64,000 nt of DNA from a virus. Lineage: Duplodnaviria; Caudoviricetes. Below are positions 19,371-62,835 of the stretch, piece after piece. Numbering within the stretch: the stretch's first letter is position 1; each line of letters opens with the position of its first letter. The stretch lies in IMG/VR virus record IMGVR_UViG_3300023047_000002. One strand, written 5' to 3'. A model generated the notes under the pieces. The model ran no database searches, was not told where the DNA came from, and was given only the letters and a program-made list of their open reading frames with translations. Position numbers and translations under genes: made by a program.

Positions 19371-20543
19371 CTAAAAACCGAGTGCCCCATTAATGTCGTG
19401 GAAATTCCATTTTCCGTTCCACATGTCGAATGTCCAGTCACGACTCGAAAGGGCACATCCTGTGTAGCTCTTGATTGGTTGTGCATGAGCACCTTTTTCC
19501 GAACCAGGCTTAGAAGGATCAGGAACAAACAGAGGCTCGCTTACACCTGGAACGAGTTTTCCGGATGAGCTTTTACCGATAGATGAAAGAACAACACGTC
19601 CTCCACGGAAACCCGTCACTTTAAAGTATGCTTTTCTTCCCCAACAATTACCGACAAACAAGTCACCGACTTTAAGACGCGACACGAACTGATCTTTCGA
19701 ACAATGCTCAGGATCAACCTCCGCATAACGCTGAGCGGCTTCATCGTCAGCAACATCAGCCATGCTTGCTTCGTTACGACGTACACGACGCATTCTACGT
19801 GACTCTTTTTTGCCTTTACCGAGCTGTGCATCAACAAGACCGATAATACCCTCACCCAGTTTGTCGAACTCAGGCTTATCAACGTCTACACTGACGATTT
19901 TCTTGTTTCCACTGTCGTCTTTAAGGGCTGCCTTGTCGTTTGAATAATCCAACTGAACGGTAACGCTTTCGTCTTCACCGTTTTTCGGGAACACTGTAAC
20001 GACAGCGGTTCCGTTATCTGTAACTGTGATTTCGACCTGACCGCCATCATAGTACTTTGTCAGCATTGCATCTACGGCTTTCATAGTGTCCGTGAAACCA
20101 CCTTCATAATCGGTACGTACAGACTCACGGCGTGTGCGACGTTTTACACTTCTTCCTTCATCGACATACTGAGGTTCGAGCCACTGAAGTCCTGGAACAA
20201 CCCGATCTGCGTCAGGCATTTCACCCATGTCGAACTTTTCACCGGGAAGGAAGCTGCCATCCTCCTGCTCAACCATAAGCTGCTGCGACATGAAACCGCC
20301 ATCCTTGTAAGTTTTGGCGTAAATAACGCAGGTCGTGCCTTCATCGACTTCTGTAACTTCCATATAGCCCATATCGTTAAGCCAGATATAGACATAGACA
20401 CCTTGTTCTGCCATTCCTTTTTCGAGTTCTTCTGCAAACGAATACCACAAGTTGTGTGTATCATCTGCAATGGATTCGTTTTTAAGAACACGTTTATTAC
20501 GTTCATTAATTCGTTTGAATCGGTCACGATTAAAAAGAGTCAT
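19371..20543 (-). CDS. Multi-domain hypothetical protein with three basic E-S/A linkers; candidate processed head protein
   Basis: RNKRVLKNES, KRRTRRES and KKESRRMRRVRRNEA separate mostly acidic domains. Confidence 0.7.
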   Translation of the reverse strand: MTLFNRDRFKRINERNKRVLKNESIADDTHNLWYSFAEELEKGMAEQGVYVYIWLNDMGYMEVTEVDEGTTCVIYAKTYKDGGFMSQQLMVEQEDGSFLPGEKFDMGEMPDADRVVPGLQWLEPQYVDEGRSVKRRTRRESVRTDYEGGFTDTMKAVDAMLTKYYDGGQVEITVTDNGTAVVTVFPKNGEDESVTVQLDYSNDKAALKDDSGNKKIVSVDVDKPEFDKLGEGIIGLVDAQLGKGKKESRRMRRVRRNEASMADVADDEAAQRYAEVDPEHCSKDQFVSRLKVGDLFVGNCWGRKAYFKVTGFRGGRVVLSSIGKSSSGKLVPGVSEPLFVPDPSKPGSEKGAHAQPIKSYTGCALSSRDWTFDMWNGKWNFHDINGALGF

Positions 20544-20558
20544 AGGAAACCTCCTTAA

Positions 20559-22277
20559 TTACATGGTACGGAAAATGTCACTGATGATACTGTCAGCAAG
20601 TTCGGAAACACTGTTAAATTCAGCCACGTCATAAACTCCCATCATCTGATGAGTATCAGCATACCGAACCTCAACACGGTCCCAAATATCAATCTCGAAT
20701 TTCAAGTAATTACGTATCGTCAAGATACCACGATGTGCTGTCAACATCTTGTAGGAGCATGTGTACATGGAATTTATACCATGCTGTCGTTTATTTCGTT
20801 TAAACGCATCAACGAGAGCCGGCATGAGTTCCTCGTATTCAATACAGTTAGCTTCGTATTTTCTTCTGTAAGAACGAACGCTTCTTGACTCTTTTTTGCC
20901 CTTCTCAAGCAATGACTTTTTACTGTTCAAGTACGCTTTCACATCAGCTGCAGGAGACTGAGTATCTTCAACAATCTGAACGTCATCATAGACATCGAAC
21001 AAAGACACATGATTGCCGTGAACGCTTACACGGATGCACAGGATTTCTTCATCGCTGTGCCCGTTTGTGTAAGCATACGAACCAAACAGGATATAGTTAT
21101 GTGACTTGGTTTCGATATCAACCTTTGCGCACATGTTAAACGGAACTTTGAACCCAAAGAAGTCCTCCATAATGACGCTTGAGTTCAAGAAATCGAGCAT
21201 CACCTGTTTAATGTCGCTTATGGTTGAATTGGTATCCATGATACGTTCATTCGCACTGGTTTTCAGAGACGGACGAAGTTTGCGAAGTTCGTTCTTTCCA
21301 AACACAAGTGAATATTTTTCAAGTCTACGCTTGGATGTTCTACGTTTTGACTCGCCAGTAACGGTATCATACAACGAATCGTAGTCAATCTCATCTTCAG
21401 ACATACCATAATCGTCACGTGTCATTGGATTGAAGTCAAGGTTTTCATCAGGACGCTCGCACATGTAATCGACAGCAACAGATTCCCACAGGCGAGACCA
21501 CATGTCTTCAGCATGATTGCGTGGATGACACCATTCACGTAACTGCAATGTGATTACAGAAATCATATCCTTCAATGACATTTCACGAGACACTGTAACA
21601 ATGCCGTCAGAAGTAAGACCAAACTTTGGCAATTTCTTTGTCAAAGCATTGACCTTTGGGTCTTGCCAGTTAAAAGGAACAAGACCCGGTGATGTAATTT
21701 TCAGTTTTGAAAAAACAGTGTAATATTCTGCATTGTCATTTGCTCCAAGGGATTCAAGCATGGCAGAAATGGACAATTCTCTAACAGTTCCGTTATCTGC
21801 AATGGTGAACTCACGAACATCGACAGTCTCATCATTGCGACCAGTTCCCGGAGTGACATCCACACGAATTTCATCAAAGATGTCAGACATGCGGGCGTCA
21901 TCGTCATCTTTAAAGAAATTCGAGCAAACGATTTCAATGTCTTCTGCTGTTACATCAATGTGAGAAGCCAAAAGCTCCATGGCATCTTCACGGGTAGAGT
22001 TCGGATTGTCAGACAGAACAATCAGAGTTGGGTATAAAGGAATATTCCCATCCTGCTGCAAACGCATAAAGACAAACGTGAAATGACTTCCCAACACGTT
22101 TGAAATGTCTTCCTGCGTGCCTTTCGATACCTGTTCCAACGTCTGACGTGAAGGATAAAACACATCCCATCCATCACGAAGAAGAACGGTAGCGATTGCT
22201 TTTGCTGTCATCCAGTAGGTGCCAATATGGCTTTCGTACCGTTTGTTTACACGATTATATTTGTTTAATCTTATCAT
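20559..22277 (-). CDS. Multi-domain hypothetical protein with basic E-S/A linkers (probable start MIRLNK)
   Basis: GGAG RBS; NRVNKRYES, GESKRRTSKRRLE, KKESRSVRSYRRKYEA. Confidence 0.7.
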   Translation of the reverse strand: MIRLNKYNRVNKRYESHIGTYWMTAKAIATVLLRDGWDVFYPSRQTLEQVSKGTQEDISNVLGSHFTFVFMRLQQDGNIPLYPTLIVLSDNPNSTREDAMELLASHIDVTAEDIEIVCSNFFKDDDDARMSDIFDEIRVDVTPGTGRNDETVDVREFTIADNGTVRELSISAMLESLGANDNAEYYTVFSKLKITSPGLVPFNWQDPKVNALTKKLPKFGLTSDGIVTVSREMSLKDMISVITLQLREWCHPRNHAEDMWSRLWESVAVDYMCERPDENLDFNPMTRDDYGMSEDEIDYDSLYDTVTGESKRRTSKRRLEKYSLVFGKNELRKLRPSLKTSANERIMDTNSTISDIKQVMLDFLNSSVIMEDFFGFKVPFNMCAKVDIETKSHNYILFGSYAYTNGHSDEEILCIRVSVHGNHVSLFDVYDDVQIVEDTQSPAADVKAYLNSKKSLLEKGKKESRSVRSYRRKYEANCIEYEELMPALVDAFKRNKRQHGINSMYTCSYKMLTAHRGILTIRNYLKFEIDIWDRVEVRYADTHQMMGVYDVAEFNSVSELADSIISDIFRTM

Positions 22278-22338
22278 AACACGACAACTCCAAAAAGGTA
22301 AGAGACACAAGCCTGAGAAGTTCGATATACAATAGCTT

Positions 22339-23469
22339 TTAATCTTCAGAACGGACAGGTAGTAAAGGACCACCCTGAGTGTACCCGATAAGCAGTCCGC
22401 CACCTACATGAACCATACTGTTATTGTTGTACCATGTTCCGATAGGTCTGTGATTCGGCGTAGTCATAACAAATCGCTTGGTATCCAGGTAACCCTTTAA
22501 CGTATCGCCCCACATAATTCTGTATGTGTAAGGGTCAGATTCCTCTTCAGAATACCCTGCGAACACAGCGATACGGGCAAATCTGTCTTTACCTAAGACA
22601 GCAGGGATATACGTCTTTAAACTCAGATAATGAGAATCGATATGAAGATGACAAGGAACCCACACGCTCATGTTATTGTTTGCGTTCATGCACGCTGCAT
22701 ATGCAACACCGGGTTTTGTATGCAATGGAAAAGCAAAGTCCTCATCAGAACCTATGCCACAGTCATCAATAGGAGGATAATTCTCATCAGCATCAAGACT
22801 CAGACGGACCGCCAGATACCTTGAACAGTATGATGTATCTCGGTCAGGGTAAAGAAGTTCTCCCATAAGCGAACCACATGCGAACCCCCTAAGATGATCT
22901 TCATCGGACATCTTATGTGAAAAACCATATACCGTGTAACCATCCGAAACAACAATGTAGGAGTAATATTCGTCAGTTCGATTGATGTCTAAAAAAGACT
23001 TAACCATTCTATTACGTGCACCAACAGTTCCGACAAAAGGAGTACTTTGAAAAGGCTTTTTGAGTCCCGTCACATTACCATCATCGTCACGTAGGAACTC
23101 AAATTTTTCTGAACTCGTCGGAGGCACAACAGAACACATAAGACCGCCAGCATATTGACCTGGATGTGTCTGCCCGCACTCATCCTTACCGACCGATGCA
23201 GGGAGACAAAAAGTCATGAACGACTCAGGGACAGCAGAGACATTCATGGCAAAGCACGCTTTCAAACCAGAATCATGCACAAGCAGAATATAGACAATCT
23301 CAGGAAGAACCGCCAATGATTCATCCCAAGTACCTACAAGATTCCACCCATGGTCAATAAGAGATAAAGCAACTCCTGTTAGTACACCACGTGCACCATC
23401 CATATCCGATGTAAAAGTTCCGCCACGGAAAGAATATTCTGAACGCTGAAAAATGCCTACATCTGCCAT
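22339..23469 (-). CDS. Hypothetical protein, possibly structural
   Basis: 376-aa ORF, no recognised motif. Confidence 0.6.
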   Translation of the reverse strand: MADVGIFQRSEYSFRGGTFTSDMDGARGVLTGVALSLIDHGWNLVGTWDESLAVLPEIVYILLVHDSGLKACFAMNVSAVPESFMTFCLPASVGKDECGQTHPGQYAGGLMCSVVPPTSSEKFEFLRDDDGNVTGLKKPFQSTPFVGTVGARNRMVKSFLDINRTDEYYSYIVVSDGYTVYGFSHKMSDEDHLRGFACGSLMGELLYPDRDTSYCSRYLAVRLSLDADENYPPIDDCGIGSDEDFAFPLHTKPGVAYAACMNANNNMSVWVPCHLHIDSHYLSLKTYIPAVLGKDRFARIAVFAGYSEEESDPYTYRIMWGDTLKGYLDTKRFVMTTPNHRPIGTWYNNNSMVHVGGGLLIGYTQGGPLLPVRSED

Positions 23470-23519
23470 AACACTACTCTTTTCTGATTACGTCTTACAC
23501 TGTTATAACAAAGTCTGAA

Positions 23520-24545
23520 TCAGTCTTCATCACGAAGCTGCTCAAGCGTCCACTCTTCAAGTATCTGGACAGGCTCGACAACCTTTCCATCAAGAAGGTA
23601 TGACATATCCTCATTCATGCACAAGTCCAAAAGACGTTTTACACCTTTTGATGCCCCATACTGACCGCTTGTGAATGGATCCGCAGTAGAAACGAATTTA
23701 CCTGCTACAGATTTATTTTTTAACGTATCCATAAAGTCTTCATAACCTGAGCCAACGGCGGCTGAGATAAAAGCGTCAGATGCTTTAACCAAAAGAAGGC
23801 GTGATTGGACTTTTGCTTTTGGGTCGTCATGCAGGAAATCCCAGGCATCCTGAAATCCAACCTGCGGTTTGTTAGTCCTAAAGAACCTAAGGTTCGTCAT
23901 GCTTTCATCAGCATCAATGTAGTAATAGCAAAACTCAGCCGACATGCGTGCAGTTTTAAACACAGGGAACATAGCTTTTTCGTGTTCTGCAAAACGTGTA
24001 ATACTCAAGTCATCAATTCCAACGCTTTTACGGTTTACGATATCGGCATTATCACGCCATCGTTTACCATGACCACCCTCACGATTGCTTTCAAGCACTT
24101 CACGTAAATCAGAGTACTGCATGAATGTCAGTGCATGACACATTTCATGTGCCAGCGTGTCACGTAAATCATGCAGTGAATTGAACACCGTATCTTTGCT
24201 AATTGTTATTCCAGTCGAAACAAATCCGATACGTTGATTTACCCATCCATTTTCACGAAGATGGGTCATCGCTGAAAACACAGGAAGATAGCTGAAACAT
24301 CCAAGCGTACCAATACCTATACTGTCATACTTTACCCATTCATCCTTCCAACCGTTAAGTCGGAAATACCCATCGAAATAAAGGTCATCTATATCGTGAA
24401 ACAGATCAACAAGAAACACATCAGTCTTCCAATTTTCCCGGTCGATACGGTTTTTTATACGTCCACGTTTAGGTGGATTTGACTGCTGTGTATCGTCAGA
24501 TTCGTTTCGTTTATTCCGTATTGAATTTCGTTTTCTGATAAGCAT
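23520..24545 (-). CDS. SprT-like zinc metalloprotease with basic leader (probable start MLIRKR)
   Basis: DTLAHEMCHA and GHGKRW SprT signature; leader MLIRKRNSIRNKRNES. Confidence 0.8.
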   Translation of the reverse strand: MLIRKRNSIRNKRNESDDTQQSNPPKRGRIKNRIDRENWKTDVFLVDLFHDIDDLYFDGYFRLNGWKDEWVKYDSIGIGTLGCFSYLPVFSAMTHLRENGWVNQRIGFVSTGITISKDTVFNSLHDLRDTLAHEMCHALTFMQYSDLREVLESNREGGHGKRWRDNADIVNRKSVGIDDLSITRFAEHEKAMFPVFKTARMSAEFCYYYIDADESMTNLRFFRTNKPQVGFQDAWDFLHDDPKAKVQSRLLLVKASDAFISAAVGSGYEDFMDTLKNKSVAGKFVSTADPFTSGQYGASKGVKRLLDLCMNEDMSYLLDGKVVEPVQILEEWTLEQLRDED

Positions 24546-24705
24546 TGAGACTCCCAGCTCGTCGTCTGATAAAACAAACAGATTAAGACAGTATGTTTGA
24601 TTTATAATGATACGCAAACCACACGTTGATTTAGATGGTTTTGTAGTTCACGACAGGATGCATCTTCTTTGTCAAAGCCTATTTAACGCTTTTACGATTT
24701 ACCAT

Positions 24706-25124: not shown

Positions 25125-25157
25125 CAATTTAGAAGCATTCTACGCTATTTTTATTTT

Positions 25158-28300: not shown

Positions 28301-30704
28301 CATTCTGAACAGGAATCCTGGCTGATTTACGTTCATCATTAGAACCCCAATTAGAACCCCAGAAGCACAGAGCTCCATCGTCATCTATTATCCATCGCTT
28401 TGACTCAACAGTCTCACAATAAAGCGTACCCTCTTCACCGGAAAGAAGACCTTCCTGAGTTATCTGCACTGTAACGGAGTCTGTCGAAGTCCATGTGGTT
28501 GATACGTCACCGTCAAGATATGGAACACACTGTTTGTACGTAATAGAACTACCGAGTATCTTACAGTCTATACCGACCTGACGTGTCACTTTCTCATACA
28601 GAGTTTCATTCGTAAACTTACCTGAATCGATACCGATACCCCAACGGCTTTCAAACAAGACGCCAAAAGAATTAGTAAGGTCAACAGTGGATCCGGCAGG
28701 AATTACTTCTGCTTCGGAAGCACCTGGGAACGGAGTGCGTTTTAACGAAATGTCATTAGGCGTAAAGTTCTTGACTTTATCACCTTCTGCCAATGCATAC
28801 ATTATAGGTATAATGACATCAACATACCGTGCAATGTACGTAACGCCTTCTTCCTCGTCGCCTTCGAGCAGCTTGACATAACGATAAGATCCATGGACAC
28901 ACTGACCAAGAATCTTAAACACGTGATCCCCTGTAATGGCATGATCATTATCAAGGATAGCATCATCTGTGCTTGAAACATAATCATCTACAACAAAAGC
29001 AACCACAGGAATAAGGCTTTCACCTCGTAAGGAACACAGATATGAACCATTAAACTGAAGCATGTTATCGCTGTCAGCGACGAAAGTTCCAAAGTCAGGT
29101 ATGAATTCCAAGCGTATACTGACGCCTAACATACCGATTGGGCATTTGCATAAGGTACCGTTGTGCGTAAACTGAAAAGTGTCTACATTCTTTCTCACAA
29201 GCTGAACATTGTCACCGTAGTGAAGAACGTATGGCTCCTCGTCTTCCACGGTTAAAGCAGACACCTGAAGCATAGCGTATGCATTTCCTGTAAGCTCTTC
29301 CTCAACCAGTCCGAGATCCTGCTTAACCGTGATGTAAACGCATTCTTTAACACGCACATTATGACCATCAACAACAGTAGGCTCGATTTCGGAGAAGATG
29401 TAGTTTCCATCAGATGCACGGCCATTTACCCAACCACGACGCGTAGATACACCAGCAGATTCCTCCAAAGAAATCGGTGTATCTGACGTAATATGGAACC
29501 ATGCCCTTCCGCTCTTGTCATACACTACCATATCTGCAGGATACACGGAACCGACAGAAAGTTTACCGAAAGTACGTCCCTCGTTATTTTCAAGGCTGAA
29601 CGATGGACGTAGCATAACAGCTTGAGTAACGGTAACCGTCGTATTCTGTAATGCAATACATGGATTATCATTTACAAAAATAAACGCATCATAGTTCGTG
29701 ATCGTTTCTTTCACGTCAGGAGTAAAAATGTTGATCTCTGGAACGATGCCGTTTACGTCCATAGACTCAACTTTCCAACGAGATCCGATGCTTGAGAGTG
29801 CACCCTCAATTTCTACACGCTGCGTAAGCTCAATATACTGTAAAGGCTTTGAAGGGTACACATTGTAATCAACATGACACCCGTCAATGGTCACAATTAC
29901 CGTACCGCCGTCATTAGACAATGAAAGTTCGAGATAGTTCTTCCACTGACGTGAGACTTCATGCGTCGTATGAGCCTCAAGTATCGTAACATTCTCATTG
30001 CCATTGACGAGACAATGCTTTTGAGTGTCCCCAACGGTAAGCTGTGCATTGACAGGAACCGCGTTAGCATAGAATTCATCAGGGACTTCACTTACGTAAC
30101 CCACGATAACGTCATTGCTGACGAGGACGTATTTCTGAGCGTCCGGAGAATCCTCAAGCGTAATAATACTATGCCCGTTATAAGATCCAACTACCCATGC
30201 AACGATATTACCTCCGGTAGTTGTAGAAACATCACCTGCCTTGTAAACATTAATATCTCCGTCTGTCTTAAACAGTTCCTGGATATGTTGTGCTGATGGA
30301 CGGAGCTGAACTTTCTCTGAGTGATCATTGATAGTGAACTCTGGCTCACATTCTTCTATCTTCAAAAGCAAGCTGATATCGCCATAACGCTTGTACTGTG
30401 AAACTCCGCTTCGGAGGAAACGTATCTTCTCATCGCCTGTATTAATATTTTTGCATTTGGTGAGTGATGTGTCAACTGTAGCACGTGGAACTACTGAGCT
30501 ATCTGTGATCTCACGTGCATGTTCCTTCATGCTGTCTAAATAAGTTGCACTGAGGAATACATAACGCTTCTGCCAAATCTGCTCAACGATATCCTTATCA
30601 GGATTAAAAGAGTCCATGATTGAACCAAGAGTTCCTGATGTAACGCTGTACAGTGTCTGGTTGCCAGTGGCAGGATTCTGACCAATAAAGAAAATCGTAC
30701 TCAT
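25332..30704 (-). CDS. Very large acidic tail/baseplate-associated protein with SH3b-like segments
   Basis: 1790 aa, beta-rich, in the tail block; segments such as MLRPSFS..GKLSVG..WFHI and LKRTPFPGASEAEVIPAGS. Confidence 0.55.
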   Translation of the reverse strand: MSTIFFIGQNPATGNQTLYSVTSGTLGSIMDSFNPDKDIVEQIWQKRYVFLSATYLDSMKEHAREITDSSVVPRATVDTSLTKCKNINTGDEKIRFLRSGVSQYKRYGDISLLLKIEECEPEFTINDHSEKVQLRPSAQHIQELFKTDGDINVYKAGDVSTTTGGNIVAWVVGSYNGHSIITLEDSPDAQKYVLVSNDVIVGYVSEVPDEFYANAVPVNAQLTVGDTQKHCLVNGNENVTILEAHTTHEVSRQWKNYLELSLSNDGGTVIVTIDGCHVDYNVYPSKPLQYIELTQRVEIEGALSSIGSRWKVESMDVNGIVPEINIFTPDVKETITNYDAFIFVNDNPCIALQNTTVTVTQAVMLRPSFSLENNEGRTFGKLSVGSVYPADMVVYDKSGRAWFHITSDTPISLEESAGVSTRRGWVNGRASDGNYIFSEIEPTVVDGHNVRVKECVYITVKQDLGLVEEELTGNAYAMLQVSALTVEDEEPYVLHYGDNVQLVRKNVDTFQFTHNGTLCKCPIGMLGVSIRLEFIPDFGTFVADSDNMLQFNGSYLCSLRGESLIPVVAFVVDDYVSSTDDAILDNDHAITGDHVFKILGQCVHGSYRYVKLLEGDEEEGVTYIARYVDVIIPIMYALAEGDKVKNFTPNDISLKRTPFPGASEAEVIPAGSTVDLTNSFGVLFESRWGIGIDSGKFTNETLYEKVTRQVGIDCKILGSSITYKQCVPYLDGDVSTTWTSTDSVTVQITQEGLLSGEEGTLYCETVESKRWIIDDDGALCFWGSNWGSNDERKSARIPVQNEIYFNAGGGNYAYIVMEGTVPAHLHWNESEINVPVNSVFTALNVWNRVIQGVQNIHTNVYQPSETLFEHVSPDGGRYLVRRTNDYMNVISYEGNYGPDHGVMVRMYRFADETGNDEYRFVEEELGSNALKVIEGQGGSDTHTVCSYFVKTVTACGSDGVLPIDTYGTKEVTVGTVPNFVKKLRISIHSPSFASESVYYISDDGYAYPEEILEATEELSFIRFSEPKDVWVTKDPTVVSEHENPSLTSGTPSPIKIWQSSSLEGLSSAQQEERDPHGFFLKLLGSSSNNLQGEDTILLAEIEGNEVYISIVEDVNLQPSTDNIYVVEVANENLRAVFIGNPDDTSTVAGIDSTDGDIAESDAFDYYTPVFHPGDLVTFTKSCVCAGGVIHLSVNEDTGVIHSVNVSRIASQFSVINEIYQGSSLPQFYLKDKAAALAPMTYMFNGETLEESELSSVSPDTVMLKNLDNPNCVYIAPGVVTDAYRSTRVSLKQPMVLDGTGGVNVLAYSFVIPNTRLTPKYMVSHSGSRYYGFEVGISSQGDVLGNVIIWALEECLEPVHSVTFEDCDLQVFPRYQQVQLYSDYSTSASYETLNISVSDLDSAFTEFHVDKAVKQDGEIVFYRIAQNSGIYSGLYLRKGFVRIAEPIVHNVQLFHKANTPFVSPLLYDIGNPVIAHSLYMVPSRKLVDDSDPSDIHTYYEVTVVLSATQTHAAWIKDDNCIIVQVPSEAVSINDETVTVHANAKAYLWDMSDAPVLHVFEEDTTFEDFSVVSDEDGFRYICVEMARSEMNNADSHISVDDPTTPDVNESTEALRVFIPSADVTRNKQGSSNTFLDVADFNVYLGTQRMSIPLSKADGSGDSLSSDEEAALLEYLDSRQNVAHVDAAYVDENDSVVMYRIASESSPVEYYACINVKELEEYWIMNRIVVPLTGQDAVVVDSQEDEGESVGDILTVLWKFTTTEEDAEFFDCGVAVPVDDEHGSEEIVRIVEV

Positions 30705-38064: not shown

Positions 38065-38577
38065 CTAGCAGAACTGCTCAAGGTCTTCCGTCAAAGCGTC
38101 AATCATCTCACGGGTGAGTTCTTTTCTTCCACTTCCAAGGGAATCCATTGAAGGACACTCGTCGAGCACTTCACGGACATAATGCTCAAGCAAAAGAACA
38201 CAGAAAGCATCCGGATCAGAAAGAGGATTCGGGTTGCAGGAACCAGTTTCAGAAACCCATTCATTCAGAACGTCACCGGCATCGTAACGGTTCTGCGAAA
38301 TGAAATCCCATGATTTCTGTGTGGACATGAAAACCGTTCCGTCCATGGTTTCCCTACCGGTCAATTCCGTTGCAAGATCGTCCATATAGACTTCAACGCC
38401 TTCCATCTCATCCAGACGATCAATGCAATGTTCCGCAGCCCATTTCTTTAATTCATTGTCATTCATGTTGTATGATGACTCAAAATGTCTCCGGCCACGG
38501 ATACGCATTGAGCGATCTGACGGAACTCGTTTCTCGGAACGTGTACGACGAATGTTTCTTATGTTGTGTTTAATCAT
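38065..38577 (-). CDS. Acidic hypothetical protein with Arg-rich leader
   Basis: GGAGG RBS; MIKHNIRNIRRTRSEKR...RGRRHFES, then an acidic helical body. Confidence 0.75.
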   Translation of the reverse strand: MIKHNIRNIRRTRSEKRVPSDRSMRIRGRRHFESSYNMNDNELKKWAAEHCIDRLDEMEGVEVYMDDLATELTGRETMDGTVFMSTQKSWDFISQNRYDAGDVLNEWVSETGSCNPNPLSDPDAFCVLLLEHYVREVLDECPSMDSLGSGRKELTREMIDALTEDLEQFC

Positions 38578-38590: not shown

Positions 38591-40107
38591 TTAACGTGAA
38601 TTAGCGTTATCATATTCTGACGCAAAACGACTTGCAATATCGGAAATTAAGTCCTCAACGGTTTCTCCGACATAATCACCGTTATCATCATGTATCCCAT
38701 CGCCATCAAAGGAATACATGACTTCTGCTAAAGAACCGAATCGTGAACTTCTTCTGTGAGCACTTCTGTCATCACAAAGAACCACATTGATTGTCGGAAC
38801 GCCGTCATCCGATTCAAGACCATCCTCAATGTCGATGCTTGCGTTTACACGACGGAAATGAAATTCATTCTTGCATACTGCCTCAAAGCTAACCTGCACT
38901 TTGTCAATGAAGTCACTTAAATCATTCGCTATCTCGCTGTAAGCATCTAAGCCATTACTTTCATACTACGAGAACGACGAGGACGTTTGCTTTCAAAATT
39001 GCGACGCATTCTATCCCAATCATCCGAAAGGTTTTGAACTTCATCAACAATCCAATCACTGATCTTGTTCTTCACTTGCTCAAGAGAAAGCATACGAAGT
39101 TTGCCAGTCGGCGCAACGCACAGATACAAAGGAATGTCCAAAGTATTGATCCAGACTTCAATACCAGACTCATTCACCAGATTGAGGTAGATACGAATAC
39201 CCGTTGGAAAATGTCCCGTAGCTCCTCCACGTGCTTCATTGACATCAAACATACCGCCTTGAAGCCTACCGAAATGCCGTTTTAATGTATTTACGAGCTT
39301 GTCAAATGCAGCCTGTGTATCTGAATCAACGGACACGTTATTTCGTGGTTTACCCTGAGAAATACACCTACGAAAATCATCGTAGGTTTCACCGAGGTCG
39401 ATACCATCCAAATCCATGAGCTGTTCCATGTAACTCAAGAACGCGCTTGCAATAGACTCAAGCACTGACTGGGATTTCAATCCCATCAAATGAAGTCCAA
39501 GAACCTCATTACAGTACGTCAACAGCTGCATGTCCAACATTTCTGAAAGCGAGTAGTCGTTTGCTTCCAGAGCTTTCTTGTTCTCGTACTTGTGTTGTAC
39601 GCGTAAATTTCGTTTACGTATCATACCCTTTCCCTCTGCTCGAAATTTATCGAAATCCTGATTAAAACTGTCGATTGCCTTTAATATGTGCTTACAAGCA
39701 TACCCGTGCCTGTCAGGATTTGTTTCATTTGGTGGACGACGTTCAATGTCAACACTACCACCCTTTACAGAAGCACGGAACTTGTACCCCTGATAGGTGA
39801 AAGCAGGACATGTACAGTCTATTTCGATATTACCCTTTACGGCGTGCTGTATTTCATCATCCAAGTGTGCCATGTCAGGATTCCATTCCTTAAAACGGAA
39901 CGTGACCGTGTACGACTTCCCTGCTTTCGCTTGTGACGTGACGCTGTAATGAACATCTCCTGTATCTTTGTTGAAGTCTACGAAACGTGCAACGATATTC
40001 GATGAACGTGAACGTGCATAACTTCTTCGGTCAGACAAATTTTGGATGTCTCGTGAGGTTACTTCATCGTGTCGTAAACAATTTGCATGTCCATGCTGCT
40101 TCGTCAT
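38591..40107 (-). CDS. SWIM zinc-finger polyprotein-like gene, split by an apparent 1-nt frameshift near 38966 (ORFs 38947-40116 and 38591-38899)
   Basis: CTCPAF...CKH SWIM motif; CGT-AG-TAT-GAA-AGT, where one added base gives R-x-YES (RKYES if A) continuing in frame into the downstream ORF. Confidence 0.7.
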
Positions 40108-40124
40108 AACAAGCACCCCGAAAC

Positions 40125-40838
40125 CTAGCGTCCAGTGTATTCCCAGATTTGTCCGTTAAGTTCACAGAATGAACCCTCGATACGAATATCCCTACCATAT
40201 GATTCGTAATCGAAGTAATAATCTTTGTTAGCAATGCCGTCCATACCAAGAGAGTCTACAACAGCCTCGCCGATTTCTTCATCTGATGCATCCTCGTCAC
40301 CACACCAGTATTCACCTGCGGTCTCAGGGTCTCCTTCCTCAGAAGCATAATACTCTATTCGGACGTCACGTCCAAATGATTCATAATCGAAGTATCGCTC
40401 AATGGTTTCATCGTCAAAAGAACCTATCTCAGAAGCATAATACTCACCGATAACACGGTCTTCATCATAACCATCTCCGATACATACCATATCGTCAACA
40501 TTCTCGAAGGCTTCATCAACGCTTCCAAAAATCTCTAAAGCGGCAGCGAAAGCATCCACGTCATCAACGTTTTCAACCTTCTCACCTATCTCATTGGCTT
40601 CGTCAAGACTCAAATGCTCACCAAGCGTGTCACACACCTCTGGGATATCACAATCCCAATCAGTCCAGAAGTACTCTTCATAATAGACACCATCCTTGTC
40701 AGGCTCATCGCTGATTCCGATACGTTTACATACGTCCTCGAAGTCATCCTCATCAATAGGAAGTGTAACCCACGTTCCAACCAAATCACCTTCGTTGTAT
40801 TTGCCCAAATTGGTAAGATAACCACGTAAAGTAGCCAT
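40125..40838 (-). CDS. ardA: Antirestriction protein ArdA (DNA mimic)
   Basis: YLTNLGKYNEGDLVGTWVTLP, EEYFWTDWD and YFDYE(S)xGRD (twice); very acidic. Confidence 0.92.
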   Translation of the reverse strand: MATLRGYLTNLGKYNEGDLVGTWVTLPIDEDDFEDVCKRIGISDEPDKDGVYYEEYFWTDWDCDIPEVCDTLGEHLSLDEANEIGEKVENVDDVDAFAAALEIFGSVDEAFENVDDMVCIGDGYDEDRVIGEYYASEIGSFDDETIERYFDYESFGRDVRIEYYASEEGDPETAGEYWCGDEDASDEEIGEAVVDSLGMDGIANKDYYFDYESYGRDIRIEGSFCELNGQIWEYTGR

Positions 40839-40897: not shown

Positions 40898-41464
40898 TTA
40901 ACACTTTACGTAACGACCACGTACTTTTGTTTGAACATCGTTACGAAGGACCCGGCGATTCTCAAGACCCATTGCAGGAGCTTCACGGAACTCCCATCCA
41001 TAAACAGGCTCGAAATTACCACTGTCATAAACTCCAACGGCCAATGTGTCATCTTGACCAAAGTATTTAAGACCAATGCATGGAATGTACTCCAGGTCGT
41101 CACCATACAGGTCAAGAAGTTTATCCACTTCATCATTCACATGATTCTCTACTTCATCCCAAGCCTGTTTTGCATCACGTGCATTGAACGGTTTACCGTC
41201 AGAGCAAATTAAATCTAGCTTACGGGAGGTGTCCTGCACATCATTAAAGAAATCATAAGCCATATCAGCATTGTCGATGTCGATGCATTCAGCCATCAAA
41301 GCGTCCCAACCACGCGTGAAATTTTCAGACTTCACGTGCTTACGCGATTCTGAACGAACAAATCTACTACGTGCAATCTTACGTAACGAGTTCTTTTTCT
41401 CACTACGTTCACGAAACGTCAACTTTCGTGTGTTAATATTCAATTTTGTTGTCTTGCGAATCAT
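40898..41464 (-). CDS. Hypothetical protein with long basic leader and acidic body
   Basis: MIRKTTK...RSRFVRSESRKHVKSEN. Confidence 0.7.
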   Translation of the reverse strand: MIRKTTKLNINTRKLTFRERSEKKNSLRKIARSRFVRSESRKHVKSENFTRGWDALMAECIDIDNADMAYDFFNDVQDTSRKLDLICSDGKPFNARDAKQAWDEVENHVNDEVDKLLDLYGDDLEYIPCIGLKYFGQDDTLAVGVYDSGNFEPVYGWEFREAPAMGLENRRVLRNDVQTKVRGRYVKC

Positions 41465-43209: not shown

Positions 43210-43605
43210 TTAATCATTTATGGTAGAATAGTCAGGCATTTCCTGTCTGGACATTGCATACTGAGGATTGTTCTTGTTCCACTCACTACAACAGTCCACA
43301 TATTTAGACCATCCAGGATTAAACCCATGTGCGGCAGCTGACGAACTCAAAAATCTGATAACATCTTTAAGTTGATGTGCATTTAGAGTGGCAGTGTACT
43401 GACCATGATTGAAATACGCTGCTTGCTCAAGCTGTAAGCACCCCTGATGATTCTCATCGATGATAAAATGTAGATGTGGTATTGGACCTTCACCAGAATA
43501 CACTTTTATCGTGATTCCGCCACGAGTGGTTCCCATGTTTGCCATCTCGTTTACGGAATGTTTATACAAAGAATCTTCAAGATAGCGTCGCTTGCGTATA
43601 AGCAT
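43210..43605 (-). CDS. DUF4160-like protein with basic leader
   Basis: MLIRKRRYLE..VNEMA leader; EGPIPHLHF. Confidence 0.6.
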   Translation of the reverse strand: MLIRKRRYLEDSLYKHSVNEMANMGTTRGGITIKVYSGEGPIPHLHFIIDENHQGCLQLEQAAYFNHGQYTATLNAHQLKDVIRFLSSSAAAHGFNPGWSKYVDCCSEWNKNNPQYAMSRQEMPDYSTIND

Positions 43606-44449: not shown

Positions 44450-46834
44450 CTAGGAAAAATGATAACGTGTAACGGCGAGTGGGAATTCTTCAATCTCGCT
44501 TACCCAAAGCACTGATTCTTTTGACAAAGTGGCCTCTGTCCAACACAAAGGAAATCCACCAATTCCGTCAAACAAACTTGCCATTGTTGTAGTATCTCCG
44601 TCTTTCTTTAAATGGTTTACAATATTATTGCACAACCATTTCCAGAAAGGCAAAGCAATTGAGTTGCCTAACGCTTTGTACTTAGGTGCGTCTGCTTCCT
44701 TGTGCTTCTTACCTTTCGTATCAACCCAATCACCAATATCGATCCATCCATTCGGATAACCCTGCAATCGTGTACACTCAAGGGGCGTTAAACGTCGAAC
44801 ACGATACTGGACAGGCTGTGCTACTGCATGAGGACCACGAGCAACCATTGACGGGATGGTTTCAGTCTCTTCAATCTTAATGTCGAACTGTGCATTCTTA
44901 CCTTGATTAAAAGCTGCACGATCTACAACAACAGGATGACGTTCAGTAGATGACTCTGTTTCGCCATACGAAACACAACACCCTGAATTACTGACCGGTT
45001 CCATAATAGCAGTACCCCCCTGGTTATTCGGTACACATCCATTCGTGGTTATCGTCCCAGACTGTTCCGTTTCGTAACACCCGCTGTTAGGATTGGAACT
45101 TTTCATACTGTTACTATTCACACCGACCAACTGATAAGCACAAGGCTCTAGAATAGTCATTGGGTCGTGCATACAATTTAACGTCTGTGAAACCTCTTCA
45201 GTGTAATGATTTGTACTCTCCGCCTGACCATTTCCAATGCAGATACACGGATAAGACGGGTCTGGGTTTCTTTCTTCTGTCGGAAGAGACAGTGCAACGT
45301 CATCGGAACTCTGTTTCACGAATACATACTCTTTTGTTGTGGTCTTCAAAGCATGAGACATTTCACTCATAACTGATACGCCGGATTCATGTGCATCACC
45401 ATTAATTGAATAAGTCTCTTCTGTAACCATCGGAACATAACCGCCACCTAAACCCATGGATTCCGGTAAAGTAGAGCACACGCCATTATTAGTAACAGTA
45501 GCATGATTCTGATTGCTTTCTAAAAGATAAGGCTCTACATTACATATATTCGGAACCTGACCTGTAGTAAGCGTTGGTGAGATTCCGTCATGACGAACAC
45601 CACAACCTGTACCTTTTATAGAAGCAATGCCGTGTGAAACAGCACTAGAGTCTAATGTGTAAGGTTCTGAAGACACAACGACATTCGTATAATCCATTAT
45701 TCTGTTGTCATGGTCTCCTGTAAGGGTTGCACTAAGTCGTCCATTTCCGTTTCCACGAGCGTCCCAGATTCTATCTGATTCTTCAGGGCTTCCAGTAGAG
45801 GTTTCGGCAGCTCCTTCCCCATGCGAGTTGCACGTGTCAAAATCCCGTTGCACGCTCTGCTGCTCAAATAATACTTCTGGGGCGGACATTCCTCCAAAAT
45901 CGCAGACAAGCGCGATTCGACGACGGCGTTGGGCGACTCCCCAATATTGTGCGTCATGTACTCTCCAAGCAATGCTCCATCTTCCCATGTCATCATAGAG
46001 GATTCCGGACTTTGGCCACTTTCCGTCTTTAGGCATAGGCACATCAGGGATTTCCGTTTCTCTTCCATCGCTGTCTTCTTCTTCAATGTTCTTTTCGCCA
46101 TCTTTCATTCCTTTGTTGAGGTTTATCTTACCCAAGAGAGCTGTATGCACACACTCATTTAAAACACACTGAAAGTCCTTTCCTTTGTTGCAGTTGAGCA
46201 ACCCAGTTACGTTCTCAAGAACCATATATCGTGGTTTCATAAAGTCCGTAGCCTGACGCATTTCTTTTATGACACGCATCTGTTCAAGGAAGAGACGTGA
46301 CTCGCTCCCTTCAAGACCCTTTCGGTTTCCGGCCACAGACAGGTTCTGACAATTGTGAACAACGATGTTTTCAGCAACATAGCTGTTATCCTCATCAACC
46401 TCAAGGTTATACACGGTACATGTTGTGTGAATATCTTTAACAGACTTCACTTCAATCCACACGAACTCATTATGACGTGAACCGTCCACGTATGCCCAAC
46501 GCATACCAAACATGTCCATTGCAGGTGTCCACAAGGTATCATTGCCATCAAGGTATTTCGAGTAAAACGGATGTCCCGCAGTGCAAATGATGTCATGCAT
46601 TCCGTCCGTAAGTTTTACAAGGGATGCTTTACGTGTTCCGGTAGATAGTACCCTTCTGTACCGTTGTCTGTGTGTATAAACAAAATCACCGACAAGGACA
46701 TCCTCGATAGGTTTTTGTCCGACGTCGGTCATTATCATCGTGCCGCCAGGGAAACATGGACTTCCTCCAATAACACAGTCCACAGCCTCAACATTCCCAC
46801 CGTTGATAAGACAAATGTCTCCGTAATTTTTCAT
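44450..46834 (-). CDS. Circularly permuted DNA (cytosine-5) methyltransferase with mini-intein
   Basis: Starts at motif III (GDI), then GGSP[intein]CQ, ENV, QRRRR, RRLTPLEC, GNS, and ends with motif I SLFDGIGG and motif II SEIE. Confidence 0.9.
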   Translation of the reverse strand: MKNYGDICLINGGNVEAVDCVIGGSPCFPGGTMIMTDVGQKPIEDVLVGDFVYTHRQRYRRVLSTGTRKASLVKLTDGMHDIICTAGHPFYSKYLDGNDTLWTPAMDMFGMRWAYVDGSRHNEFVWIEVKSVKDIHTTCTVYNLEVDEDNSYVAENIVVHNCQNLSVAGNRKGLEGSESRLFLEQMRVIKEMRQATDFMKPRYMVLENVTGLLNCNKGKDFQCVLNECVHTALLGKINLNKGMKDGEKNIEEEDSDGRETEIPDVPMPKDGKWPKSGILYDDMGRWSIAWRVHDAQYWGVAQRRRRIALVCDFGGMSAPEVLFEQQSVQRDFDTCNSHGEGAAETSTGSPEESDRIWDARGNGNGRLSATLTGDHDNRIMDYTNVVVSSEPYTLDSSAVSHGIASIKGTGCGVRHDGISPTLTTGQVPNICNVEPYLLESNQNHATVTNNGVCSTLPESMGLGGGYVPMVTEETYSINGDAHESGVSVMSEMSHALKTTTKEYVFVKQSSDDVALSLPTEERNPDPSYPCICIGNGQAESTNHYTEEVSQTLNCMHDPMTILEPCAYQLVGVNSNSMKSSNPNSGCYETEQSGTITTNGCVPNNQGGTAIMEPVSNSGCCVSYGETESSTERHPVVVDRAAFNQGKNAQFDIKIEETETIPSMVARGPHAVAQPVQYRVRRLTPLECTRLQGYPNGWIDIGDWVDTKGKKHKEADAPKYKALGNSIALPFWKWLCNNIVNHLKKDGDTTTMASLFDGIGGFPLCWTEATLSKESVLWVSEIEEFPLAVTRYHFS
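46352..46756 (-). mobile_element. 135-aa mini-intein without endonuclease
   Basis: Begins CFPGGT, block B TAGHPF, ends VYNLEV...VVHN; +1 residue is the MTase catalytic Cys. Confidence 0.92.
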
Positions 46835-46929: not shown

Positions 46930-47757
46930 TCAATGTCTCCATGTCACATTGATATCCTGGTCCATACCCACGGACACTTCTGCGTACTCCCACGTGTTCG
47001 TGTACTTAACAGATTCAGGAATCACGTACCCGACAATAACATCCATAAATCCGCTTCTCAAACGGTTTATAATTGCGTAGTCCTGCTTTTTTAAAAAGGC
47101 AGTCTCTTTAAGAGCCGCTTTCACACCTGCCTGACTCATTGCAAAGACTTCAAAGTCATGGACATTATTTTCAACAGCAGGGTATTCCATACACTGTGCC
47201 AACGTGCGCTCACCATAGAGAAGCGAGTAAAAACGATAAGCCATACCTGTCGTTTTGGTAGAAGCACCGTCATCACCGTCAGCTTCATAACGTTTTCCGC
47301 GTGACAATCTACGCTGAATAATATGCTCATATCTGGTTCGTCGCCTGGAAGCACAACAAACGGACTCCGAGTACACAGGACCACTCATACGAGTCCTTAC
47401 AAACTCCAACAAGTCTTCATACGACTTGTTACCAGATGCTATAAGATAAAATATGTCCGCAAGCTCAGATGTAGAGCAATTAAGAGAGATTCCATTTAGT
47501 TGCAAAACTGATAACAAGACTAAACAACCTACACGTTTATTTCCATCAATAAACCCACGATTCTTGACGAGACCGTATCCTAGTCTTGAAGCCTTTTCTT
47601 CAGCATTTACGTAAAATTCGACCTCTCCGAAACCCTGAAATGCAGCGTTGTATGCACTTTCAACCAAACCACGGTCACGAATACCGTCATCACCGCCAGT
47701 ACTAGCAATGATGGAATCGTGGTAACGATAAACATCTTCAAGTCGGATGATCTTCAT
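46930..47757 (-). CDS. doc: Doc/Fic-family protein with His-to-Arg active-site change, fused to a C-terminal extension
   Basis: GIRDRGLVESA, EEKASRL, KNRGFIDGNKR (canonical HxFxDGNKR). Confidence 0.85.
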   Translation of the reverse strand: MKIIRLEDVYRYHDSIIASTGGDDGIRDRGLVESAYNAAFQGFGEVEFYVNAEEKASRLGYGLVKNRGFIDGNKRVGCLVLLSVLQLNGISLNCSTSELADIFYLIASGNKSYEDLLEFVRTRMSGPVYSESVCCASRRRTRYEHIIQRRLSRGKRYEADGDDGASTKTTGMAYRFYSLLYGERTLAQCMEYPAVENNVHDFEVFAMSQAGVKAALKETAFLKKQDYAIINRLRSGFMDVIVGYVIPESVKYTNTWEYAEVSVGMDQDINVTWRH

Positions 47758-47942
47758 TCAGCAAGTCTCCTAAAGGTATCAGAATATTTTTTAAGAAGAA
47801 ATGAAATTGATTCGTCGATCTCAGACTGACTCGCATAAGTTAAAATAGACTCTTTAACACGTTCGCGAGAAGCGCATTTTTCATTGCTTCGTTGTCTCAC
47901 ATACCGGCTGTAGCGGTTAGCTTTACGCTTTAGGAATGCCAT
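47754..47942 (-). CDS. Putative antitoxin peptide for Doc, with basic leader
   Basis: ATGA overlap with doc; C-terminal KKYSDTFRRLAE resembles Doc-neutralising helices. Confidence 0.6.
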   Translation of the reverse strand: MAFLKRKANRYSRYVRQRSNEKCASRERVKESILTYASQSEIDESISFLLKKYSDTFRRLAE

Positions 47943-48074
47943 ATACAAACTCCGATCCATTTTTATTCACCATTGGTAACAATGGCTACTATTAAATCAC
48001 ACCAAACAAGGTGTGGAGGGATCTCTCAGCGCAAGAAACATCTGCTTTAACAAAATGTTTCTTGCTCCTTCAAC

Positions 48075-48127: not shown

Positions 48128-48754
48128 TCACTTCAACTCCTCGGCTAACGTCTTCTGCTGTTTAGCCAAAAGATGCTTGACCCGAGTTGCCATCTTTTTA
48201 TCTGTTTTATCAGGAACAACAGGAACATCCAAAGTGTGTTCTGCCAACTGTCCAAGACAAATAACCGTTCTGACGGGTACATAAGAGGGGCACTGGGTGA
48301 CACCTGCACTGCACATGTCCTCACACACATACAATGGAATATCGCAAAGAATCTCCTGCATATAAGATTCAGCAATCCCAGACAAGCTCTCAAGAAACAT
48401 CTCAACAGAATTTACATCTGAAATATTGTCACATGACGCAATAAAAGCATCCTCATAACACGGAACATCATCACACGAATAAAGAATGTCTGCATCAAAG
48501 ACATGAACCGTGTTCTCAAAACGGAAAACAACAGACAGTGAGAATAAAGTAAATCCAGTGTCAACCATGACAAGATCAATAACGTAAGTTAAAGGATCTT
48601 CTGAATAAAGGTAAAGATTGAGGTCAACGCTAAACGGAATCAAAGAAGGAATGCCGAGTACCGTATCACAAATGATCTGAAGCATCGGATGTTCACCAAA
48701 GTCTTGGTAATTATCTGACGCCTCACATAGTACTTTGCGTTTATGTCTTGTCAT
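48128..48754 (-). CDS. Acidic hypothetical protein with short basic leader
   Basis: MTRHKRKVLCEAS. Confidence 0.6.
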   Translation of the reverse strand: MTRHKRKVLCEASDNYQDFGEHPMLQIICDTVLGIPSLIPFSVDLNLYLYSEDPLTYVIDLVMVDTGFTLFSLSVVFRFENTVHVFDADILYSCDDVPCYEDAFIASCDNISDVNSVEMFLESLSGIAESYMQEILCDIPLYVCEDMCSAGVTQCPSYVPVRTVICLGQLAEHTLDVPVVPDKTDKKMATRVKHLLAKQQKTLAEELK

Positions 48755-57324: not shown

Positions 57325-57530
57325 AACAACCACCTATATGCTTTGAAAGCATATCGAAGAAACACACGGTTCATGAACCTGCAAGTGTATCACGGTATGC
57401 ATTGTAACTGTTTGGGAACACAAAGTAATTGATAGAAAATAAGGTATGAAGTAGCTTAAAATTTGTAAAAGCACCTACACACAAACCAAACTCATGCATA
57501 GGTGCTTGTGTAATCATTTACGTGTAATGA

Positions 57531-59030: not shown

Positions 59031-59120
59031 AAACACCTCTCATAAAAGTAAGTGCCCATTGAATGTGTTTGAAATGTAAGGTTCAATGGGCATATAAGTG
59101 AATCATCCTAAACGACTACG

Positions 59121-62100: not shown

Positions 62101-62381
62101 ACATGATGACCTTGAAAGTTTGTCGGATATTCATCAACTCCCCAGGCGATAACGTGAAGCTCAGAAAGCATCGAATGCTTGGAATTCAACGTTACTACCT
62201 CTTCTGAAGGCATGTGCTGAACATTACTCACATAAGTCAGGTCAGCGAGATTCTCTGGAAGAGTTGCAGTGTAGCGATAGATTTTTACAACGACTGACGA
62301 TTCTTGAAGTTGAAAGGTATGGTTTCTTAGACCTGTATAGATCTCAGAACCTTCCGAGCACAGAACAACACGATCAAACAT
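59121..62381 (-). CDS. Repeat-rich tail fibre
   Basis: 8 [LV]P[TS]xxAV repeats; TVAKTGSYNDLSNKP fibre motif; exact 32-bp DNA repeat at 61042-61073 and 61507-61538. Confidence 0.78.
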   Translation of the reverse strand: MFDRVVLCSEGSEIYTGLRNHTFQLQESSVVVKIYRYTATLPENLADLTYVSNVQHMPSEEVVTLNSKHSMLSELHVIAWGVDEYPTNFQGHHVVVIVGGKCLACAYASENLVPDDKLHITFDFEETNGVLNAKADFDGNITQGILDEILATVAKTGSYNDLSNKPSIPDAANDSTVTVYAGASISNNIATGGTEMGSFTVNQASNSFINLGAAAAKAVDSSIGVAESSNLPTTNAVKAYVQDKTISLKKHSGDENAFDFFTTNQSSNKTIVLGYGDAADKGVDTSIGDSSSSNLPTTDAVKGYISSQNFAVKGTNDIPTVNNNQITIKKNSADTSNPFSFTLNQSSDSELNLGLGAAAFKSVDSAITDGSTQGDVPSSDAVKSYISGKGFATASSVKDSTVTVRRNSSHINPPTFTLNQASDATVDLGLGAAAEKGVDTSIGDSSSSNLPTSDAVKSYISGQGFALASNVPDSTSDLTNDSGFITSSDISGLADDDDVPKYASYNSTSKTIYFKHSSSDTDLNALFSLDATAFIKDGMVSNVEISNSNLVISFNTDADKEDISIPLSDIFNPNNYYTSSQTDTAISNAITALNLGGASQKGVDSSIGTSSSDNLPTSDAVKSYVTGLGYATTGQLPTVNNSTITIKKNSADTSSPFSFTLNQASGDELNLGLGDAAFKAVNTSITDGSTQSDVPTSDAVKSYVSGKNYITSSSVGTANLKIYKGASASGSADFTFSANQSGSDVDVTLGMGTAAAKDAETTLTSSSDAAVPTSKAVATYISGLGYAASSSIGNGELKIKKHTSDTSAISTGFTANASSDQTVDLALGSAADKSVDSSITVSNAGTAQATAGDNLPTSEAVRAFVEGKGYVTSVSNEQIALCYTDPSKGPNQTSYFGGSNNPSVFTLNGISHIIKFGEAASREVVYLSGSDTIDTVTDQDTCLITLGQAKTLASNAAEVKTVAPSDAPMTIGTQTGDGIEIPVGAMVWLALNFSGNVGIMDFTTVFSNGVGGTPILSGNGSNAEVIAYMAQIRDNAGDFYALENQKLKAGQKFRTMNCMDSSGMAVPAYGFALCVRLPDDNAGSGT

Positions 62382-62550
62382 AAGCACACCTCCAAAAGGA
62401 AAGCCGTTATGTCATACATGTGTTTAGTGCTTATACGTCTGAAGACGGCACTATAAATCTCAGAGCGGTGTAACAGTGAGCGAGGTTTGTAATGTCGAGT
62501 TTTACACAGTATAAGTACGAACACCATGCAAACACAACAAAGGGAGAAAA

Positions 62551-62835
62551 TTACAAATATCGTTTCCGCTCCCAAGTGGGGTCTATCATTTCGAGATCCT
62601 CCATACGAGCGGATATTTCATGTATTTCGTCAATGTACTGCTGTAATGCAGCTGAAGCAGCTTCACTCTCACCAGACTCTTCGGCACGGACAAGCTGTCT
62701 CTTTGTTGAAATAGTCTTGTTTATCACAGAATCCAATAAGGATGTCGCAAGTAAAATTTCATGTCCGTGATCAATAAATGTATCCAACAAACCCTCACGT
62801 TTTAAGGATTTTTTAGACTTTCGTTTTTTTAGCAT
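62551..62835 (-). CDS. Small helical protein with basic leader
   Basis: GGAG RBS; MLKKRKSKKSLKREG. Confidence 0.6.
   Translation of the reverse strand: MLKKRKSKKSLKREGLLDTFIDHGHEILLATSLLDSVINKTISTKRQLVRAEESGESEAASAALQQYIDEIHEISARMEDLEMIDPTWERKRYL

Follow-up and report, generated by a model that had tools for sequence, protein, structure and literature searches.

Candidate prohead-protease sites and excisable arginine-rich peptides on head-associated cargo and polyproteins of a large uncultured phage

We analyzed a 64,000-nucleotide stretch of DNA (IMG/VR record IMGVR_UViG_3300023047_000002; hereafter, the window) that comes from a large uncultured phage and includes its head genes. Arg-rich peptides ending in Glu were found on about 15 unrelated, mostly acidic proteins of the window, in three forms: N-terminal leaders of 10 to 47 amino acids (aa), internal spacers with Glu sites on both sides, and C-terminal tails that follow a Glu|Ser pair (the bar stands for the predicted cut). 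On balance, we favor the reading that these are prohead-protease sites on head-associated cargo and polyproteins, and that the excisable basic peptide is probably an address tag similar to the capsid-targeting sequence (CTS) of phage T4. The strongest evidence is comparative, since it is at the basic peptides that related genomes have their modules joined, separated, lost, or exchanged. The phage is remote from cultured ones, with a best capsid identity of 26% to any of them and no match in a megablast search of the window against cultured phages. Two related IMG/VR contigs were analyzed over their full length: G002, whose DNA is ca. 89% identical across window positions 1 to 36621, and G001 (227.6 kb; capsid identity, 69%), which was used as a hold-out. 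Coordinates are those of the window unless a relative is named, and the tagged, protease, and capsid genes all lie on its minus strand.

A preliminary description of this DNA had listed examples of the peptides and proposed that they are portable tags by which effectors and polyproteins are loaded into the head, cleaved there, and injected with the DNA. Every listed peptide was found at its stated gene. However, the one at 38947, given as a leader, is an internal spacer at residue 165 of a 389-aa frame, and the KGRNEA example of the gene at 190, although present, also belongs to an internal spacer (residues 745 to 750 of a 1035-aa protein). Tagged genes do lie within the range first proposed for the system (19371 to 62835), but the system reaches beyond it, for example, to the gene at 190-3297. 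The portability of the tag was borne out, as it occurs at N termini, between modules, and at C termini of unrelated bodies; 18 mature modules had no mutual BLASTP similarity at an E value of ≤0.01. All leaders start with ATG and have a GGAG-type ribosome site 7 to 10 nucleotides upstream, except that the match is weak in 40898-41464. The contrast in charge was also as described: leaders and spacers have a net charge of +3 to +7 and an isoelectric point (pI) of 10 to 12, whereas the pI of the bodies is mostly 4.1 to 5.5, reaching 7.7 at most. The basic segments consist of 25% Arg and 14% Lys (ca. 5% each in the proteome) and contain 26 Glu versus 4 Asp residues.

The proposed enzyme is encoded at 11636-13165, a 509-aa protein with the prohead protease as its N-terminal half and a C-terminal scaffold-like domain fused to it. 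The gene lies within the head module, directly upstream of the capsid gene and adjoining it. Its product matches Pfam Peptidase_S77 (5.4e-13) and the PHROG head maturation protease (4e-37), while a match to Peptidase_S80 (3.4e-7) is weaker and covers a shorter stretch; His85 and Ser142 stand at the catalytic positions in an alignment to T4 gp21 (PDB 5JBL). The characterized relatives of this protease, from T4, phiKZ, 201phi2-1, and SPN3US, cut after Glu (PMC5694885, PMC10052503, PMC9026906). The protease/scaffold protein itself was said to carry about 10 sites of the Glu-Ser type, and indeed 10 Glu-Ser pairs are found among its 49 Glu residues (p 0.018). In G001, a fragment downstream of the capsid gene (201357-201587, minus strand) is 30% identical to protease residues 89 to 168; it could be a remnant or else a divergent paralogue of the protease, a situation reported for SPN3US-like phages.

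The major capsid protein (10165-11622) belongs to the gp23 family (Pfam Gp23, 1.4e-24, from residue 76; PHROG major head protein). Glu58, followed by Gly, is the sole invariant residue of its N-terminal arm among 17 homologues, down to 35% identity, and the site is of the same type as those that end the leaders: across homologues, P2 (the second residue of the site, counted back from the Glu at P1) is mostly Asn, Lys or Arg occupies P3 to P5, and P1', the residue after the Glu, is Ser, Gly, or Asn. Because Glu58 is invariant, stands shortly before the Pfam Gp23 core (which starts some 18 residues later), and has a parallel in T4 gp23, from which a 65-residue propeptide is removed after Glu (PMC9026906), it is likely the maturation site, and residues 1 to 58 (11449-11622) would be the propeptide. 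The capsid protein had been credited with two sites of this kind; the other one, at residue 17, was rejected, as it is already lost at 75% identity.

The motif is more frequent than expected by chance. With a loose pattern, [KR][KR]x(0-2)E[SAG], 25 matches are obtained in the proteins of the window; shuffling of the residues gives 8.2 ± 3.0, with no more than 18 in any of 2000 shuffles, and the controls are 11 for the mirrored version and 10 for the version with Asp. A refined pattern, [KR][KR]x(0-1)[FYN]E[SAG], gives 12 matches against 0.62 expected and, in the hold-out G001, 16 against 3.0 ± 2.1 (maximum, 10 in 150 shuffles), the G001 controls being 3 (Asp), 1 (Gln), and 8 (mirror). Thus, the refined motif is 5- to 19-fold above the shuffles, in the window and in G001 alike. 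Double-cut basic spacers, with two Glu sites and free of Asp, number 7 in the window and 13 in G001 versus 0.5 and 2.1 expected. After a Glu preceded by at least three Lys or Arg residues, P1' is Ser, Ala, or Gly in 19 of 43 cases (44%) versus ca. 20% otherwise, and no such small-residue effect was found after Asp. Sites are also concentrated near the start of proteins, where 12 to 14% of N-terminal 50-aa windows contain one versus ca. 4% of internal windows (2 to 3.5 times more often; p 0.0015 to 0.13). Unconstrained motif discovery (expectation maximization anchored on every Glu) recovered only a helix-like composition, and the hypothesis-driven counts above were used instead. The tail fibers, which together with the methyltransferases had been described as lacking such leaders, indeed have no match; however, these proteins are poor in Lys, Arg, and Glu, and only 1.2 matches were expected, so the contrast carries no weight.

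The clearest case of module shuffling is the gene at 19371-20543, which codes for a 390-aa polyprotein with the order leader, M1, spacer, M2, spacer, M3. Its 23-aa leader (20475-20543; net charge, +5) ends in Glu|Ser, with the Glu kept in all homologues even though the leader is almost wholly replaced in P0030. The Arg-rich spacer 1 (20124-20156) ends in Glu|Ser, and spacer 2 (19770-19823) would be cut twice, its sequence being Glu|Ser, 10 basic residues, and Glu|Ala. Including that of the window, six module orders are found in this family, joined at basic peptides: X, spacer, M1, spacer, M2, spacer, M3 in P0029; leader, M1, spacer, M3 in P0031 and P0032, where M2 is deleted between the two spacers; leader, M2, spacer, Y in P0033; X, spacer, M1, basic tail in P0034 to P0037; and X, spacer, M2, spacer, D in G001, which has a separate gene for leader, M1, tail. 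Spacer 1 is an edge both of the M2 deletion and of the gene split in G001, and the homologue of spacer 2 links M2 to other modules in G001 and P0033. In an AlphaFold2 (AF2) model of the polyprotein (mean predicted local distance difference test score, 48), of which we used only the pattern of confident and unconfident segments, the low-confidence segments (residues 1 to 30, 126 to 148, and 244 to 285) coincide with the leader and both spacers. The same model gives M1 (31 to 125) and M2 (149 to 243) a shared order of a helix followed by a beta-meander; they may have arisen by an ancient duplication, although no similarity between them shows up in BLASTP.

Module D of the G001 arrangement is, in the window, the C-terminal module of the neighboring gene (20559-22277; leader, module A, spacer, module D), a polyprotein of 572 aa when read from the ATG supported by a Shine-Dalgarno (SD) sequence. 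Its 15-aa leader (22233-22277; +4) ends in Glu|Ser-His, a junction kept in G001 despite a different leader, and a double-cut spacer is recognizable in its sequence at 20853-20906. The large module A is a stand-alone gene in G001; a search of the ESM Atlas with it gave no lead. The three-module protein at 190-3297 (1035 aa; spacers at 2593-2649 and 1051-1104, residues 217 to 235 and 732 to 749) has its last two modules encoded in G001 by two genes, each with its own basic leader. The product of 38947-40116 comprises a SWIM module (Pfam SWIM), an internal tag that begins with Met (39565-39624), another module, and, following Glu|Ser, a basic tail at the C terminus (38950-39021); in G001 its two halves are parts of separate genes and have other partners, and each of the two alignments overlaps the internal tag. 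Similarly, the acidic module that follows a Doc-like domain at 46930-47757 is found in G001 after a different N-terminal domain, with its own basic spacer in between, and a module internal to a G001 protein is a stand-alone, leader-bearing gene in G002.

Among these relatives, an in-frame spacer in one genome can be a gene boundary in another (a basic tail, a stop codon, and then a basic leader), and vice versa. In each orthologous junction that we compared, the leader varies in length and sequence, but the P1 Glu and the opening residues of the body are retained. For six breakpoints in the architecture, the mean distance to a strong site is 9 aa, compared with 88 aa for random positions, and none of 20,000 random draws matched this.

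The remaining tagged genes code for single bodies with leaders or for further combinations. The product of 23520-24545 contains a SprT-like metalloprotease domain (Pfam, 1.9e-9) behind a 15-aa leader (24501-24545); in four homologues, the leaders vary in length and sequence, but all start with M-[LI]-I, are basic, and contain [NY]-Glu. At 38065-38577, the sequence reads as a 137-aa acidic body with a 33-aa leader (38479-38577; +9), and at 40898-41464 three Glu sites are present in a 47-aa leader (41324-41464; about +14) that precedes an acidic body, the G001 homologue aligning only from residue 53. The 131-aa protein at 43210-43605 has a leader of the M-L-I-R-K-R type (43546-43605), a weaker site because P1' is Asp or Met. 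From their sequences, we also include a very acidic 197-aa body (pI 4.1) with an 11-aa leader (48128-48754; leader, 48722-48754) and an 80-aa acidic body with a 14-aa Lys-rich leader ending in Glu|Gly (62551-62835; leader, 62794-62835). In the latter, the junction Glu|Gly-Leu-Leu-Asp-Thr is kept in G001 (29980-30285) behind a different, longer leader.

The protein at 46930-47757 consists of a Doc-like domain (Pfam Fic/DOC, 1e-9; PHROG Doc-like toxin), a basic spacer (47284-47367), and the 116-aa acidic module mentioned above. A weak member of the set, the small basic protein encoded just upstream (47754-47960), has a basic stretch ending in Glu|Ser at residue 37. The two had been described as Doc and its antitoxin. 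The Fic/DOC domain is present, but when it is aligned to PDB 9vzc, an Arg takes the place of the catalytic His of the Doc motif, and the upstream protein had no family match; the two may not be a working toxin-antitoxin system. The upstream protein also had no homologue in G001. In Pfam and PHROGs searches, most cargo modules found no annotation; the recognizable SprT-like, Doc-like, and SWIM domains hint that the cargo includes effectors, as had been proposed, the Doc-like one being devoid of its catalytic His.

Taken together, the assignment of the Glu-[S/A/G] ends to the phage's own gp21-type protease, already made in the preliminary description, is supported in silico as predicted cleavage, because the same motif is found at capsid Glu58, the phage encodes an S77 protease with His and Ser in place, the motif uses Glu rather than Asp or Gln, and architectures break at these points. 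In the mechanism that we envisage, the precursors would enter the assembling prohead, where the basic peptide, like the T4 CTS, would probably hold the cargo on the scaffold core. The activated protease would then cut after each Glu, removing the capsid arm and degrading the scaffold, and the same cuts would excise the basic peptides and separate the polyproteins into modules of ca. 100 to 450 aa that stay in the head. Since processing would yield the same products either way, gene fusion, fission, and swapping at the peptides would be permitted in evolution. By analogy, the modules might further be delivered into the host with the DNA.

The role of the basic peptide as an address or anchor is the least secure step of this mechanism. 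The sites might be cut by the head protease with the basic run serving as an extended recognition surface or a soluble spacer, and targeting would then reside elsewhere, in the mature modules or in other partners. The capsid's own site has Lys or Arg at P3 to P5, so basic residues may belong to the specificity of the enzyme, and most head proteins of SPN3US are uncleaved and yet incorporated (PMC10052503). However, two-site spacers release the whole basic peptide when one site would be enough to part the domains, and basic tails stand C terminal to Glu|Ser with no site downstream. In addition, the M-[LI]-I-[RK] start recurs 10 to 30 residues away from the cut and is kept in the peptide but not in the DNA. 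Owing to this double bracketing, the C-terminal tails, and the distal conserved start, we take the basic peptide to be more than a presenter of the site, a CTS-like address or anchor being the simplest option, and regard targeting by other parts of the proteins as rather unlikely.

It seems less probable still, and on the whole quite improbable, that the peptides remain uncleaved as permanent disordered arms or linkers that bind nucleic acid, with Glu plus a small residue as a structural cap. Nucleic-acid-binding and virion proteins often have disordered tails rich in Arg, and local charge clustering does raise the mirrored motif in G001. Nevertheless, such arms would leave unexplained the strict choice of Glu over Asp, the fact that the Asp and Gln controls stay at baseline, the match with the invariant site of the capsid protein, and the free exchange of a spacer with a stop-plus-start boundary. 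We consider it very unlikely that the tags serve another destination or enzyme, such as a host protease, the SprT-like protease of the phage, export, or a compartment made by the phage. Many of the tagged genes lie dispersed among nonhead genes, and the SprT-like protease is itself tagged, but the leaders have no hydrophobic core for export, the Pfam and PHROG scans of the window revealed no known Glu|small-specific family besides S77, and the capsid site has the same motif.

Finally, an artifact of gene calling or of A-rich start codons (which favor Lys, Asn, and Arg) is scarcely credible: start codons were indeed picked by eye with a simple SD rule, but the same peptides occur inside long frames and at C termini, and Arg exceeds Lys, with 63 of the 80 Arg codons in the segments being CGN as in the rest of the genome, which excludes an A-rich start-codon or codon-bias effect. 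Recent duplication of the leaders was also rejected, because M-L-I-R-K-R leaders with identical residues use different synonymous codons and are therefore not recent DNA copies.

Several observations weigh against the reading of the peptides as prohead-protease sites with an address tag. The P3 preference is unlike that of every characterized gp21-type protease, which is Leu or Ile in T4, Ser or Ala in phiKZ and 201phi2-1, and Ala (A-x-E, with Ser preferred at P1') in SPN3US (PMC5694885, PMC10052503, PMC9026906); of 11 refined sites here, none has Leu or Ile and one has Ala, Ser, or Gly. Several of the listed sites have an atypical P1' (Asn, Asp, Met, His, or Lys). Many tagged genes are distant from the head block, among tail-fiber and accessory genes, and the ArdA antirestriction gene in their midst (40125-40838; Pfam, 2.9e-32) has no basic leader, spacer, or tail. 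As for the statistics, the motif was refined after the window had been viewed, which leaves the G001 count as the sole hold-out, from a genome that is itself a relative. The mirrored motif is somewhat raised in G001 (8 versus 3.0), and part of the signal must therefore be local charge clustering; by the loose criterion, enrichment over the whole G001 genome is modest (54 versus 36). N-terminal enrichment is weak in some gene sets (those with p up to 0.13), and the breakpoint test is inflated, as alignments tend to stop in any disordered linker.

The tag is not confined to the window. Starts of the M-[LI]-I-[RK] type followed by a basic run number 6 in the window, 13 in G001, and 8 in G002, internal copies included, and relatives at 35 to 42% capsid identity have basic leaders that end in a local version of the capsid motif. 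Among cultured phages, gp066 of Bacillus phage vB_BceM-HSE3 (L036 11538-12467) is an acidic protein with a basic leader ending in Glu-Ser. The capsid of this phage is a distant relative (26% identity), and vB_BceM-HSE3 may be a tractable model for the tag. A very acidic G001 protein (179208-180167) contains a tandem basic unit of ca. 17 aa starting with Met-Ile-Lys, like a duplicated tag.

Other genes of the window also deserve mention. No protein of the region is better conserved than the product of 13270-14619 (87% identity to G001, where a 31% paralogue is found elsewhere); this product had no Pfam or PHROG match, and it occupies the place where one would look for a portal or vertex protein. 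Three open reading frames that follow the capsid gene immediately downstream (5201-9946), among them an HNH/homing-endonuclease gene (8174-9946), have no G001 counterpart, which suggests mobile insertions in the head module. In the DNA methyltransferase gene at 44450-46834, the first ca. 100 residues match PHROG families of NrdD and of helicases, a second stretch is broken up, and the whole looks like an intein or other insertion.

If the reading as protease sites with an address tag is true, this would add a second natural tag for capsid loading, which differs in sequence from the T4 CTS, is paired with a protease specificity of its own, and would be useful for packaging foreign proteins in phage heads. 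The head cargo and mature ends of proteins in an uncultured clade of jumbo phages could be read from sequence alone, and the known specificity of gp21-type proteases would be widened to basic P3 to P5 with Asn, Tyr, or Phe at P2. It would also be an example of processing that relaxes gene architecture, with close relatives fusing, splitting, and swapping modules at the tags. A bolder and rather doubtful extension is that the peptide is a position-independent electrostatic address module, active at either terminus or within a chain, whose excision on both sides would render fusion and fission selectively neutral and let cargo be freely shuffled. The dozens of different basic peptides of 10 to 20 aa so released might then remain in the head as DNA counter-ions, as adenovirus mu does, with the acidic modules being ejected.

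The closest known system is that of T4, in which the internal proteins IPI, IPII, and IPIII and Alt have a CTS processed by gp21 (PMC9026906, PMC3012670; Mullaney and Black 1996 cited therein). Both systems share the protease and capsid protein families, short N-terminal leaders (10 to 19 aa in T4) that end in Glu on unrelated proteins, and a conserved tag in front of varied cargo; the trimming of T4 Alt at its two ends can be likened to the C-terminal tails described here from their sequence. However, the T4 tag is nonbasic and ends in L/I-x-Glu, whereas the tag here has an Arg content of 25%, with Leu or Ile at P3 in 0/11 sites. The cargo bodies also differ, being basic in T4 and acidic here; multimodule polyproteins with double-cut spacers are not a known trait of T4 cargo, nor is fusion or fission at tags.

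phiKZ (gp175), 201phi2-1, and SPN3US (gp245) are likewise jumbo phages with a protease that cuts after Glu, and this type of protease processes the capsid protein and many internal proteins (PMC5694885, PMC10052503, PMC9026906). A preference for Ser at P1' and several cuts within propeptides are also shared, the latter here as predicted cuts in the double-site spacers and multisite leaders of our sequences. Some of their propeptides are of similar length (20 to 24 aa), but most are long (111 to 254 aa), whereas the pieces removed here would be short and Arg rich and would double as spacers between modules. Moreover, their motif is S/A/G-x-Glu (Ala, Ser, or Gly at P3 in 1/11 sites here), and the protease of the window matches S77 better than S80. 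In phage P1, a 30-aa N-terminal segment suffices to bring the large antirestriction protein DarB or a reporter into the capsid, a likeness to our leaders, but the paper describes no common cleavable motif on many proteins, and the head protease context is another (PMC9024508).

As in viral polyproteins, the modules described here are parted by a protease motif, and the same modules are encoded separately elsewhere. A likeness is also found in adenovirus, whose core precursors pVII and pX/mu are cut inside the capsid by the viral protease and include Arg-rich, DNA-associated peptides. However, this is a eukaryotic virus with an unrelated cysteine protease and a different motif, and its basic peptide is a retained functional product, which here is a possibility. 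Overall, the system would work like the T4 CTS/gp21 and phiKZ-type processing, of which it has the structural prerequisites but not the motif definitions (basic P3 to P5, with Asn, Tyr, or Phe at P2). Two predicted features, the double-cut Arg-rich spacers that build polyproteins and the interchange of spacers with gene boundaries, have not been described for the T4 and phiKZ systems in the papers cited and would set this phage and its relatives apart.

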